A stretch of 64,000 nucleotides of DNA from an uncultured Verrucomicrobiae bacterium (GTDB taxonomy: Bacteria > Verrucomicrobiota > Verrucomicrobiia > Chthoniobacterales > Terrimicrobiaceae): positions 224,001 through 288,000 of the forward strand of contig CAVPOC010000003.1 of NCBI GenBank assembly GCA_963706955.1, in the 5' to 3' direction. The position numbers were made by a program, and so were the translations under genes. Below, one piece after another: positions 30,055-51,320 of this stretch. The notes beneath the pieces are model-generated. The model ran no database searches, was not told the origin of the DNA, and saw only the letters and a list, made by a program, of their open reading frames with translations. Position 1 is the stretch's first letter, and each line of letters starts with the position of its first letter.

Positions 30055-30134
30055 GGGGCGGACGCGTCATGCGGCCATTCCGGCGTCTCGCCGGATGGGC
30101 GAGACGCCGAACACCACACGCGGGCGCGTGCTCC
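30055..30134. repeat. Free degenerate copy of the recG-RAYT flanking palindrome (REPIN-like)
   Basis: ggggcggacgcgtc...ttccggcgtctcgccgga-tg-ggcgagacgccga..cacacgcgggcgcgtgctcc aligns to 45854-45948. Confidence 0.8.
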
Positions 30135-44740: not shown

Positions 44741-47498
44741 ATGAGTGACATTCACTCAATGAGCTTGGCCTTACTCCGGCCGGAAACGCCACTAGGCGAA
44801 CTCGATTGGGTCCCTCGCGCAAAGCTGGCCCCACTGAGGCGACTGGGGCTGGAGACACTCGGCGATCTGCTCAAACACTATCCCAGGCGATATGAAGATC
44901 GCAGACGGTTTGACCGGTTCCCCGATGATGAAATGATCCAGCCCGTCTGCCTTTTCGGTTTGGTCACCCGAACGTCGCTCAAGCGAATCGGCGGATGGCG
45001 GAGAATGTTTGAGATCACGTTGGAAAACGAGTCCGCCGGCGTGCTGAGCGAACCGGTGACCTGTCGCTGGTTCAACATGCCGTACATGCAGAAGTTGATC
45101 GTCACGGGCCAGCACCTGGTGATCTTCGGAAGACCGAAGAAGAAAGGTCAAAAGATTTTCATTGATCACCCGGAATTCGAAGGCGTGGAAGAAGACGAGG
45201 AGACTTCCATCCACATGAATAGGATCGCTCCCGTGCACCCTGCCGGAGACGGGGTGTCCCCACGATTGCTCAGAGCATTGGTCTTTCAAGCGCTCGCCAA
45301 CACCGATCTTGCCACAGTGCCTTCGCTGCTCCCGACATCGCGCGTCGCGGCGCTCCGCGACATTCATTTTCCGCTCACGTTCGAACATCTGGAGGATGCC
45401 AGGCAGGAGTTGGTGCGTGAGGAATTTTTTTCCATGCAGTTGCTGATCCATGCTCGCCGAGCCGACTGGCAGAGGCTGCCCGGAGTCGCCAAGAACGGCA
45501 AGGGCGAGCTTCTCGAGAACCTCTTACAAGAGCTCCCGTTCCCCCTAACCAGTTCGCAATTGGAAGTCATCGGCGAAATTCGTCGTGACCTTGCGGCGCC
45601 GAAGCGGATGAATCGCCTGCTTCAGGGCGATGTCGGATCCGGAAAAACATTGGTGGCCCTGGCAGCGATGCTGCTGGCGGTGGAGGCCGGCTGGCAGGCT
45701 GCCCTCATGGCTCCAACGCAGATTCTCGCGGAACAGCATTATTTGAACTTCAAGAAATTTCTCGAGCCGCTCGGCATTTCGATCGCCCTCCGCACGGCCG
45801 ATCGCAACGAAGATACTGCCCCGCTGCCCCTCTTCGCGCGTGCCGCGGATCGAGGAGCATACGCGTCCACGGGTGCGGTTTCCGGCGTCCCGCCGGAAAA
45901 CCCTGCTCGGCGGGACGCCGACCAGCACACGCGGGACGCGTATGCTCCCCAGGAATCGCGTTGTTCGAAGCGCAATTTGCCGCACTTCGAACGACCGTGG
46001 GCGAAGGTACGTCGTTACCTTTACCACCCGAGAACGAACGGCTCTCACGCCTGAGGAGCGCGATATCGTTCTCAACGCCGTGCTACATGAGCGTATACGC
46101 TTCACGCTTTACGCCACCTGCGTGATGCCTGATCACGTCCATCTGCTTCTCGAGCCGGCGATCAAAGAGGAGGACACCGCTGGAGCTGCAATCTTCTTCT
46201 CCCTCACCGAAATACTTCACTCCCTGAAGTCGTTTACGGCCCATGAGATCAACAGAGTTAGAGGCAAGAGAGGACCCGTTTGGGAAAAGGAATCATTTGA
46301 TCGGCTGATCCGCTCCGAGGAAGACCTGCAGGAGAAGTTTCATTACATAACTCGCAATCCATGGGACGCGGGCGTGGTAGGCGCAAACGAGGAGTATCCG
46401 TGGGTTTGGTTTCCAGGTTGCGCAAAGGATCGGGGAGCGCACCCGTCCCCGGGTGCAGTTTCCGGCGTCCCGCCGGAAAACCCTGCTCGGCGGGACGCCG
46501 ACCAGCACACGCGGGACGCGTATGCTCCCCAGATCATTGTCGGCACGCATGCGCTTCTTTATGAAGCGAGCGGATTCAACGATCTCGGCCTTATCGTGAT
46601 CGATGAGCAACATAAGTTCGGCGTGCTGCAGCGAACGGGTTTGATCGCCCGGGGCGATTCCCCTGATGTCCTCGTCATGACCGCGACGCCGATCCCGCGC
46701 ACGCTCACGCAAACCATTTACGGCGACCTGGATGTTTCTCTCCTCCTGGAAAAGCCGGCCAATCGCGGAACGATCGCCACGGTAGTGCGTGAGACAGTGA
46801 AACTGCCCGAGGTGATTGAATTTGTAAAAAAGCAGATCGCCAGAGGACGCCAAGTATACATCGTTTACCCATTGGTTGAGGACTCCGAGAAGCTCGCGGC
46901 GAAGTCTGCGACTGCGGAGTTTGAAAAGTGGGGGCCTCTCCTGGCGCCGTACTCTGTCGGGCTTCTTCATGGCCGGATGCCCCCGGGCGACAAGGAAGAG
47001 GTGGTCGCCAAGTTTCGCACGGGGCGACTGGCCGCGCTGATCGCTACCACGGTGGTCGAGGTCGGAGTTGACGTTCCCAATGCCAATGTGATGGTCGTGG
47101 AGAACGCGGAGCGTTTCGGATTGGCACAACTCCATCAGCTTCGCGGCCGTATTGGTCGCGCCGAGCACAAGTCGTTTTGTATTCTACTCCACGACGCCAA
47201 AGCCGACCAACTGGCCTTGGAGAAGCTTGCCGTCCTCGAGAGGACTTCCGACGGGTTCGTGATCGCTGAAGAAGACCTTCGTCTGCGTGGCCCTGGCGAT
47301 TTGCTCGGAACCGCTCAGACCGGCTTGCCTCCTCTGAAGCTCGGAGATCTTTTTCGCGACACGCAGCTGATGAAGGAGGCCGCGGCCCTGGCCGCTAAGA
47401 TTTTCGCGAATGATCCCCAACTGCAAAAGACCGAGCATCGCGCTTTGCGTGATTTCCTGGCGCGATCAACGGCGAAAATCGCTGCCTCAGCTGGTTGA
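44741..47498 (+). CDS. recG: ATP-dependent DNA helicase RecG carrying an internal RAYT insertion (one extra base at 46006-46007)
   Basis: YPRRYEDR wedge, QGDVGSGKT, APTQILAEQH, then the insert, then IIVGTHAL, DEQHKFG, MTATPIPRT, QLHQLRGRIGR, DLRLRGPG; 918 aa if one base is removed, ~690 aa without the insert. Confidence 0.93.
45847..45952. repeat. 106-bp palindromic direct repeat, left copy (coding REPIN-like element)
   Basis: Nested inverted repeats GGAGCATACGCGTCC/GGACGCGTATGCTCC (15 bp) and CGGCGTCCCGCCG/CGGCGGGACGCCG (13 bp); 100/106 identical to the right copy. Confidence 0.95.
45953..46427 (+). mobile_element. REP-associated tyrosine transposase (RAYT; IS200-like Y1/HUH) domain embedded in recG
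   Basis: KRNLPHF..., YVVTFTT, CVMPDHVHLL (HUH at 46134-46142), LKSFTA..IN, WEKESFDRLIR, YITRNP (Tyr at 46344), YPW. Confidence 0.92.
46427..46532. repeat. 106-bp palindromic direct repeat, right copy
   Basis: Last 75 bp identical to the left copy; translated in the same register (DRGA...GVPPENPARRDADQHTRDAYAPQ). Confidence 0.95.
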
Positions 47499-49077: not shown

Positions 49078-49338
49078 ATGAGCGACAAGGAGGCCGTTGC
49101 CGTCGAACTAGTCTCCATCGAACAAGCGATGGAGAGGTTGGAGAATTTGGTTCGCGAGATGGAATCTGGGCAACTGCCTCTGGAGCAGCTCATCAGCAGC
49201 TACGAAGAAGGGGTTAAGCTGGCCAGCCAGTGTCAGGAAAAACTCGACGCCGCCGCAAAAAAAATTCAGGTTATCACCAAAAATTCCTCTGGACGAACCG
49301 TTTTGGAGGACTTTCCTCTTGCTGCCGATGAATCATAA
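49078..49338 (+). CDS. xseB: Exodeoxyribonuclease VII small subunit
   Basis: EQAMERLE.LV..MESG.LPLE.....YEEG..L...C..KL; directly upstream of dxs. Confidence 0.9.
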   Translation: MSDKEAVAVELVSIEQAMERLENLVREMESGQLPLEQLISSYEEGVKLASQCQEKLDAAAKKIQVITKNSSGRTVLEDFPLAADES

Positions 49339-51229
49339 GCCGTTTCTGCCAACCATTCACTCCCCTGCGGACGTGAAGGCCCTCGAGGAAAAGGATCTAC
49401 CTTTCCTGGCCGAAGAGGTGCGCGCTGAGTTGATCCGCGTGCTCTCGCAAACTGGTGGCCACTTGGGGCCCAACCTCGGCGTTGTAGAACTCACGATCGC
49501 CCTGCACCGGGTTTTCAATACCCCAAGAGACAAGTTCGTCTTTGACGTAAGCCATCAAGGATACGTTCATAAGCTCTTCACCGGCCGGCGTGAGCGCTTT
49601 TCCTCGATTCGACAGTATCAAGGTCTCAACGGCTTTCTCCTGAGGACGGAGAGTGAGCACGATTGCTACGGGGCAGGGCACGCGGGCACGGCGCTATCGG
49701 CGGCGCTAGGAATGGCGGCCGCGCGCGACATGCTTGGAGGCGACGAACATGTTGTCTGTGTGGCCGGGGACGCCGCCTTTACCTGTGGGGTAAGCTTCGA
49801 GGCTCTCAACAATCTCGCAGCCACCACGAGGCGGCTGATCCTCGTGCTAAACGACAACGAGTGGTCAATTGCCAAGAACGTGGGCGCGGTGGCTGAGTAT
49901 CTGAACCGCATCGTCGCCAATCCTGCATTTGCCCACTTGCACGACAAAGCCGGGCAGTTCGTCGAGTGGCTCGCCGGAAAGCAGGCGCGACATTTCGCCC
50001 ATAAGGTGGAGGCTGGCGTCAAGAACCTGCTGGCGCCGAGCGTGATCTTCGAGGACCTCGGCTTGCGCTACTACGGCCCGATTGATGGGCACGATATCCC
50101 GCTCCTTATCCGAACGTTCGAATTCCTTAAGACCCAGAATGAGCCGGTTATCCTCCATATTCTGACGAAAAAGGGCAAAGGCTATGCTCCTGCCTTGGAG
50201 AAGCCCGACAAGTTTCATGGGCTTGGCAAGTTTCACCTTGATACGGGGGAGACCGCGGCTTCGGCAAAGCCGACCTATTCCGAACTTTTGGGGAAGACGC
50301 TTGCCGATTTTGCCGATCACAACAACAAGATCGTGGGCGTAACTGCTGCCATGCCCAGCGGCACAGGACTGGTCCATTTCTCAAAGCGACATCCGAATCG
50401 CTGTTTCGACGTCGGCATCGCCGAAGAACATGCCGCCCTCTTCGCCTGCGGACTCGCCGTTCGCGGCATGAAGCCCTTTTTGGCCATTTACTCGACGTTT
50501 CTACAGCGCGCTTACGACATGATCATCCATGATATCGCGCTGCAAAACCTGAACGTCGCGCTTTGCATGGATCGTGCGGGGCTCTCCGGCGACGATGGTC
50601 CTACTCACCACGGTCTCTTCGACATCGGCTATCTTCGCCCGGTTCCCGGAATCGTCCACATGCAACCAAAGGACGAAGATGAGTTCTGCGACATGCTTTG
50701 GACGATGGCGAATTATCATCCCGGCCCCATCGCCATTCGCTATCCGCGAGGAATGGGCACGGGCGCCGAGCCTAAGGAACGTCCAGTGATCCTGGAGATA
50801 GGAAAGGCCGAGGTGCTCTGCCATGGTTCACGCGTGGCCATTATCGCTCTCGGAACGATGGTCGAGGTCGCGTTGGAAGCGGCCACCAAGCTTGAAGAAC
50901 AAGGCATCTCGACCGCGGTAATCAATGCCCGCTGGATTAAACCGCTCGATGTCACCACGATCGAGTTCTTCGCGCGGGGATGCGAGGTGGTCTGCACGAT
51001 GGAAGACCATGTCCTTCACAACGGATTTGGATGTGCGGTGATGGAACACCTCGCCGAGCTGAGGATTACCACTCCGGTCGTCCGGGTCGGCTGGCCTGAC
51101 CAGTTCATCGAGCATGGGAGTGTGCCGATCCTCCGTAAGAAGCATGGCCTCACTGCTGAGGCCACCGTGGAGAAGATCGTGACGGCACTTCCGGTGCGCA
51201 GAGGCATTCGCGTCAAGTCGGCCGCGTGA
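49328..51229 (+). CDS. dxs: 1-deoxy-D-xylulose-5-phosphate synthase
   Basis: GGHLGPNLGVVELT, DVSHQGY.HK, GPIDGHD, DVGIAEEHA, DGPTHHG. Confidence 0.97.
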   Translation: MNHKPFLPTIHSPADVKALEEKDLPFLAEEVRAELIRVLSQTGGHLGPNLGVVELTIALHRVFNTPRDKFVFDVSHQGYVHKLFTGRRERFSSIRQYQGLNGFLLRTESEHDCYGAGHAGTALSAALGMAAARDMLGGDEHVVCVAGDAAFTCGVSFEALNNLAATTRRLILVLNDNEWSIAKNVGAVAEYLNRIVANPAFAHLHDKAGQFVEWLAGKQARHFAHKVEAGVKNLLAPSVIFEDLGLRYYGPIDGHDIPLLIRTFEFLKTQNEPVILHILTKKGKGYAPALEKPDKFHGLGKFHLDTGETAASAKPTYSELLGKTLADFADHNNKIVGVTAAMPSGTGLVHFSKRHPNRCFDVGIAEEHAALFACGLAVRGMKPFLAIYSTFLQRAYDMIIHDIALQNLNVALCMDRAGLSGDDGPTHHGLFDIGYLRPVPGIVHMQPKDEDEFCDMLWTMANYHPGPIAIRYPRGMGTGAEPKERPVILEIGKAEVLCHGSRVAIIALGTMVEVALEAATKLEEQGISTAVINARWIKPLDVTTIEFFARGCEVVCTMEDHVLHNGFGCAVMEHLAELRITTPVVRVGWPDQFIEHGSVPILRKKHGLTAEATVEKIVTALPVRRGIRVKSAA

Positions 51230-51233
51230 CAAT

Positions 51234-51320
51234 GGGAAGTGCACGCGTCCCCGCGTGCAATTTTGAGCGTCCCGCCGGGAGACCGGGTGCGGCGAGACGT
51301 TGCGGAAACCGCCGGACGGC
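51234..51320. repeat. Degenerate free copy of the recG-RAYT palindrome between dxs and glyQS
   Basis: gggaagt-GCACGCG-tccc-CGCGTGC...gcgtcccgccgg...cggcgagacg..ggaaaccgc. Confidence 0.65.

Follow-up and report, generated by a model that had tools for sequence, protein, structure and literature searches.

Can a transposase domain flanked by palindromes reside inside a housekeeping gene without breaking it, and by which means? RAYTs are generally regarded as free-standing, single-copy and immobile, and both their benefit to the host and the mechanism by which REPs spread are debated. The window, as we call the 64,000-nt stretch of DNA from an uncultured Verrucomicrobiae bacterium (genome G000) that we analysed, raises this question in its recG gene. 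The gene (44741-47498, plus strand) occupies two overlapping frames, with ORFs of 437 and 552 aa, and contains a cassette of 685 nt (45848-46532), organized as REPIN-RAYT-REPIN, between motifs Ia and Ib, i.e., between APTQILAEQH and IIVGTHAL (Table 1). ORFs, repeats and profile matches confirm this anatomy, which the initial annotation had proposed. Both halves of recG matched RecG models in the Pfam and NCBIfam scans, and the wedge domain, the SF2 motifs and the C-terminal domain 3 of RecG are all present. By simple arithmetic, the ORF has 918 codons once one G at 46006-46007 is removed and 690 if the cassette is removed too, in agreement with the sizes given at the outset.

Table 1. Features of the recG locus and its cassette (positions in the window).
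Feature	Coordinates	Strand	Evidence or remark
recG N-terminal part (wedge domain, motifs I and Ia)	44741..45847	+	RecG_wedge, DEAD and RecG NCBIfam matches
Left REPIN-like palindrome, 35 aa when translated, made of two inverted REP arms	45848..45952	+	Repeat and folding; disordered in the model of a relative
Each arm of the left palindrome	within 45848..45952		GGAG foot and two small hairpins
RAYT (TnpA-REP, HUH/Y1) domain of 158 codons, lacking its own start and stop	45953..46427 (475 nt)	+	NF047646; 4ER8
One surplus G, assembly error	46006..46007	+	Absent from X5/X6 contigs; continuous proteins of 912-918 aa
HUH motif (H-V-H)	46134..46142	+	Sequence; aligned with the HUH of 4ER8
Putative catalytic tyrosine (FHYITRNP)	46344..46346	+	Aligned with residue 115 of 4ER8
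Right REPIN-like palindrome, 35 aa when translated, repeating the left one in direct orientation (94%)	46428..46532	+
recG C-terminal part (motif Ib onward, Helicase_C, RecG_dom3_C)	46533..47498	+	Pfam/NCBIfam matches

The profile scan that the initial annotation had suggested, which recovered RecG on both sides, also identified the inserted domain: it passed the RAYT profile NF047646 (81.1 bits for a cut-off of 80) and fell just under the cut-off of Pfam Y1_Tnp (21.9 bits for 23). Its best solved relative is 4ER8 (E 1.4e-4), whose Y115, numbered by counting along the alignment, we take to be the catalytic tyrosine. The HUH and tyrosine motifs that had been described as intact are present and conserved, the two histidines in 84/85 and 85/85 of the aligned rows and the tyrosine in 84/85; our search patterns included the His motif, which partly selects for the histidines, and not the tyrosine. 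One same-genus copy (L058) has lost the tyrosine. G000 has no member of this clade other than the recG domain, which is also the only RAYT of this genome flanked by these arms; further RAYT-like genes (L001-L005) lie in short frames, the nearest arm of this family being ~5 kb away. The element does not fit IS200/IS605, since Y1_Tnp remains below its cut-off, the clade has one copy in G000 and the cassette contains no TnpB. Splicing elements, of which no feature had been seen initially, were not detected in profile scans either: no intein family matched in the Pfam scan at E<=0.001, and no group I or II intron model of Rfam matched at E<=1 over 45500-46900, where there were only five sub-threshold hairpin matches. 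The junction peptides differ in frame and in residue between loci and include no conserved splice-junction residues.

The window copy of recG is frameshifted, which could be taken for an insertional knockout or a misassembly. The initial annotation regarded one extra G as the sole break of the frame, and independent data bear this out. The base at 46006 is absent from every covering contig of two runs from two different studies, X5 (one contig; 2.9 of a depth of 2.9 without the surplus base) and X6 (two contigs; 13.7 of 13.7), and the longest of these contigs are otherwise identical to the window over 264 and 302 nt. Protein P0018 is continuous over 912 aa and 99% identical to both window halves (413/415 and 494/496). 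It is possible to see further signs of a knockout in the window's protein cluster, whose 13 members are the two pieces of the window, four continuous proteins (912-918 aa) and seven truncated ones, the latter being 7/11 of the non-self members. They are truncated at seven different places, which we attribute, without being able to prove it, to assembly errors or to the ends of contigs. Among all non-self members, seven are in frame at codon 422, and each of them continues past it. The extra G stems from an error of assembly, because the X5 and X6 contigs lack it and four near-identical proteins are continuous. Other conserved genes of G000 have frame breaks, namely valS (C7:64319-66950, in a G run), carB (C7:75032-78347), a gene that presumably encodes a YchF-like GTPase, as named from its motif (C1:67328-68546), and the end of thrS (C3:588009-590000), which points to residual indel errors in this assembly. 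A knockout or misassembly of recG is thus largely refuted already, and hardly credible. We also ruled out a programmed frameshift at 46006-46007, since other alleles are continuous there. Among the other read data, run X1, of which ~62% was read, covered neither the RAYT interior nor the core of recG, and the RNA-labelled run X15 gave only scattered short contigs. An excision joint was found in none of four runs, whose contigs break inside the repeat (45907).

The initial annotation had called for a search of relatives for recG with and without the insert, and both were found. Intact RecG::RAYT fusions occur in 7 of the 60 relatives searched, with open frames of 894-1044 aa, three of them in the genus of the window (G004, G009 and G015) and four outside it (G028, G040, G043 and G054). 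None of the outcomes named beforehand as fatal to the annotation (a real frameshift, no in-frame relatives, no match to a RAYT profile) was observed, and its core proposal, an intragenic and frame-preserving REP-RAYT element that uses a housekeeping gene, is supported by the intact relatives and the RAYT profile match. The RAYT-bearing recG was the only recG found in the five genomes tested for this (5/5). Within the genus, 14 of the 18 genomes comprise three with the RAYT, ten with one palindrome only and one with a collapsed hairpin. The one-palindrome alleles (~725 aa) thus outnumber the full cassette within the genus, and they include the window's nearest RecG relative (88% identical), which lacks the RAYT domain. 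The RAYT of the window is 80, 84, 76 and 71% identical to those of L056, L057, L058 and L059, respectively, for host parts that are 69-85% identical. As RAYT and RecG diverge in step, and as these five RAYTs form a starred clade on the RAYT tree, we read the cassette in this genus as an old insertion that was inherited and repeatedly lost, leaving one direct repeat behind. At the same site, L022 and L008 (left palindrome) have the palindrome in the opposite orientation, which leaves the frame open, and L018 has it collapsed to a 22-nt hairpin.

Removal at the DNA level, one of the initial proposals, is therefore correct over evolutionary time, as indicated by the one-palindrome alleles, but nothing indicates that function depends on it. 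A regulated excision restoring a working gene, in the style of skin or nif elements, would account for the one-palindrome and collapsed alleles of the genus. Yet, these alleles are fixed ones that belong to other species, the full cassette itself keeps the frame, and an essential gene, alaS, carries it as the only copy found. This makes such an excision very improbable.

Other essential genes of Verrucomicrobia from soil carry the same element. A profile built from 10 embedded RAYTs, and searched regardless of flanks, confirmed at least 576 of 603 candidate stretches in GTDB; the best 80 of these gave 78 loci, nearly all titled Verrucomicrobiota. Judged by motif, 76 of these best 78 loci are in the reading frame of a host gene: AlaRS (37, at three sites), MetH (15, at two sites), RecG (14), ThrRS (9) and CarB (1), host names having been checked by NCBIfam for 30 of the 78. 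The two others are free-standing, with a Met of their own. The frame is open over at least 100 codons upstream in 73/74 testable loci and downstream in 72/75, and a Met lies within -45 to +12 residues of the RAYT start in only 14/77 loci, i.e., there is no conserved internal start. Among 201 genomes of the order, 52/57 full-length strong matches lie in open frames of at least 734 aa (51/56 without the unpublished genome G200); the five others are four short frames and the window itself. All five genomes tested had the RAYT-bearing alaS as the only alaS found. AlaRS is essential, and these alleles must therefore yield a working enzyme. Among proteins, 2125 clusters of at least 269 aa match the domain at E<=1e-20, and the automatic JGI names of many among the 120 listed clusters join both parts, as in 'RecG-like helicase/REP element-mobilizing transposase RayT'. 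Several representatives are short free forms of 227-266 aa. Embedding in genes is thus the dominant habit of these RAYTs, but it is not obligate, since free-standing members and short free forms exist.

This diversity of hosts bears on the function of the fusion. Relaxase-helicases (TraI/TrwC) have an HUH nuclease and a helicase in one chain, and the initial annotation described the insert as a tolerated loop insertion reminiscent of them. The tolerated insertion is the part that we favour; the resemblance did not hold, because the same clade is found in AlaRS, ThrRS, MetH and CarB. Here, the HUH domain interrupts an SF2 RecA-like domain; it is dispensable and also turns up in hosts that are not helicases. 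A domesticated nuclease-helicase chimera with a joint function could explain why the RAYT evolves as slowly as RecG and why the RecG site is occupied across several families. It would be extremely improbable given the other hosts, which extend to PriA, BirA, PurH, Hsp70 and others among the protein representatives, and given that the nearest RecG relatives of the window lack the domain.

What is conserved in the flanks of the domain is DNA structure. The two 105-nt repeats of the window (45848-45952 and 46428-46532) are 94% identical and fold better than shuffled sequences (z of -7.3 for the left and -6.8 for the right). Left and right REPINs have identities of 0.95, 0.86 and 0.98 within loci, and of 0.80-0.95 between loci. 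In the RecG register the two repeats of the window read DRGAYASTG... and DRGAHPSPG..., 35 aa each with differences at 4/35 residues, so the claim that both are stop-free stands, whereas the claim that they encode the same peptide is only nearly right. The palindromes of the window lack stops in all six frames, and arms at other loci are read in all three forward frames, which indicates that the DNA hairpin is conserved rather than the peptide. So selection acts on the structure of the arm DNA and on the absence of stops. Inverted arms across the RAYT occur in 71/78 loci and in 0/74 control stretches, with the layout arm-RAYT-inverted arm at most loci, while the genus of the window has a full two-arm REPIN on each side. 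We aligned 52 left arms, the window's and 51 of the 61 found (ten were dropped as mispicked, atypical or duplicate): 91.7% of the cells pair, 12 of the 16 pairs change on both sides, and such both-side changes amount to 106 cells against 24 in shuffles, slid controls pairing at 53% or less. The foot of the aligned arms is GGAG, not the GTAG/GTGG of REPtrons; the form GGTAGC was found nowhere in G000 and is present at one locus, L121. Across G000, the REP family comprises 59 arm matches in 41 loci, against none in the reversed-genome control, and recG alone among these loci has an open frame exceeding 124 codons on both sides. The window contains two further arms of the family, at 30098-30130 and at 51234-51278, the latter in the gap after the ORF at 49319-51229.

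The pairing of the arms could also serve to remove or bypass the cassette on the mRNA and thereby give a normal RecG, given that the outer arms of the cassette are perfectly complementary over 15 nt (I11) and that most loci have inverted arms on the two sides of the RAYT. However, no intron model matches, the junction peptides vary freely in length and frame, and a removal from mRNA has no need of the stop-free, in-frame downstream junction that is open in nearly all testable loci. Covarying hairpins are also precisely what RAYTs require in single-stranded DNA. We thus consider removal from the mRNA improbable.

The explanation that we favour, on the basis of sequence comparisons, is that the cassette is probably translated as a tolerated inserted domain, with the RAYT still acting as an enzyme on single-stranded REP arms. 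A REPtron would have inserted into a loop of RecG domain 1 that tolerates it, borrowing the promoter and start codon of the host. Translation would then give a protein of 918 aa with, in order, the host N-terminal part, a REP peptide, the HUH/Y1 domain, a second REP peptide and the host C-terminal part. The host is not broken, since neither the arms nor the RAYT contain stops and both preserve the frame. The fusion itself would be the mature protein, and its embedded domain may still cut single-stranded REP hairpins and feed the REP family of 41 loci. One-palindrome alleles would arise by deletion between the direct repeats, and the cassette would occasionally move to another REP-bearing loop.

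Structure prediction is consistent with a tolerated insertion. An alignment-based AlphaFold model of the intact fusion of a relative (911 aa) has a mean pLDDT of 78.7, with confident RecG and RAYT domains and with REP peptides (348-410 and 558-586) that are predicted to be disordered (pLDDT <50). Its best solved match is the RecG structure 1GM5 (E 9e-37), and Foldseek with the whole model retrieved only helicases. Such disordered linkers might instead allow the release of the RAYT from the fusion, by proteolysis or a new type of protein splicing, and many hosts are indeed cut at domain linkers, with MetH being a gene split at the RAYT-bearing linker in three loci. The RecG site, in contrast, lies within one RecA-like domain, there is no intein family in the profile scan, and junctions lack conserved residues, with arms read in different frames. 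Release from the protein is accordingly unlikely. Inteins, and group I/II introns with homing endonucleases, place a selfish nuclease in conserved essential genes and use their expression; the present cassettes differ in showing no splicing features, in occupying variable loops and linkers instead of conserved motifs, and in that the insert appears to be kept in the mature protein. Activity of the RAYT as a single internal domain is plausible since the TnpA-REP of E. coli is monomeric and differs in this from IS200/IS605 transposases, according to PMC3479197.

The embedded RAYTs evolve under purifying selection: dN/dS is 0.03-0.13 in 15 of the 16 estimable pairs and 0.25 in the other (22 close pairs were picked from the tree, of which six were saturated). 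This constraint could partly reflect the need to fold inside the host protein. Site labels require 19-20 changes on a quick tree of 153 columns, for a minimum of 8 and a mean of 54.5 after shuffling. The RAYTs at AlaRS site 1 were rejected as a clade (p-AU 0.003), as were those at site 2 (p-AU 0.00004), under LG+G4, a model that rejects some true clades. Closely related RAYTs (89% identical) are found at different alaS sites. These patterns would fit mostly vertical inheritance, with more than one origin per site and occasional relocation. Changes of site could result from gene conversion or recombination between REP-bearing sites instead of transposition. A bolder version, which we hold tentatively and would not yet bet on, is that the cassette is a self-mobile transposon embedded in proteins: the RAYT would be active as a domain of RecG, AlaRS, ThrRS or MetH and would copy the arm-RAYT-arm unit into loops marked by one palindrome, so that it homes to one-palindrome alleles and hops from site to site, and the GGAG foot would spare the arm a stop. 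The idea is that GGAG replaced GTAG, removing the one stop codon of the arm; under the guide model in the available portion of PMC8266576, the kept A3G4 would still select CT.

How do these cassettes compare with known systems? The enzyme is a RAYT and the element works like a REPtron (E. coli TnpA-REP, 4ER8; NF047646); the extragenic free-standing gene and the GTAG foot are both missing. The likeness, judged from sections of PMC3479197 and PMC8266576, includes the HUH and tyrosine motifs, the size, the inverted hairpin arms, a tetranucleotide foot, a dispersed REPIN family of ~100 nt and mostly vertical inheritance. Described RAYTs are free-standing and extragenic, with no evidence of self-transposition in the accessible part of 10.1101/2021.07.10.451892, whereas the present ones lack start and stop, reside inside essential genes, occupy at least eight sites in five host genes, and have arms with a foot of GGAG instead of GTAG. 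Palindromes translated in frame in housekeeping genes were described for intragenic REPs and Rickettsia palindromic elements, as far as the excerpts of PMC3733652 and PMC3184786 go; those inserts are non-autonomous peptides of 20-80 aa, whereas the present genes contain the transposase domain itself. The same portion of PMC3733652 reports most intragenic GTAG REPs in Opitutus terrae, another member of the Verrucomicrobiota. In the TnpA-Y1 subclass 2.4 of PMC6006769, seen in extract, REPs are translated in frame within the RAYT gene, while here the RAYT is within the host gene; the extract also states that unexpectedly long proteins were discarded as fusions or annotation errors. The top listings of a full-text literature search gave no description of RAYT domains inside host proteins, and the supplements of PMC3733652 and PMC6006769 might list cases; PMC5581495 is cited among the RAYT/REP literature, here in partial text.

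A RAYT clade that occupies several sites as an internal domain of essential proteins under purifying selection provides a natural series of full, one-palindrome and empty alleles for the study of RAYT mobility and cleavage. It suggests how a mobile element can reside in essential genes with no need for splicing. The cassettes also mark loops in RecG and in aminoacyl-tRNA synthetases that accept a folded insert of 200 aa, and account for mis-annotated long 'transposases' and long synthetases in genomes of Verrucomicrobiota. If the self-mobile version were true, these would be the first RAYTs known to mobilize themselves, and they would require no splicing to hide in essential genes.

Several minor observations extend this picture. 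A second RAYT subfamily in the same order, whose palindromes differ and whose first strand is followed by a longer insertion, is found in frame in ValRS (L039, L040), LeuRS (L041, L043, L045, L046), CarB (L044), a restriction-modification-like protein (L042) and, at the C-terminus, a cation-efflux-like protein (L054). More distant RAYTs lie inside PriA, BirA, PurH, Hsp70, a glycyl-radical enzyme, Ham1 and DNA methylases (P0211, P0221, P0244, P0255, P0273, P0169, P0302, P0239). The AlaRS of L069, L108 and L127 have two RAYT domains each, seen as two NF047646 stretches. Finally, the free-standing members at L100:4075-5019 and L117:4294-5019 have a left arm immediately preceded by a Met and a right arm that ends with a stop, and they lie in an operon whose genes we take to resemble those of type IV pilus assembly.
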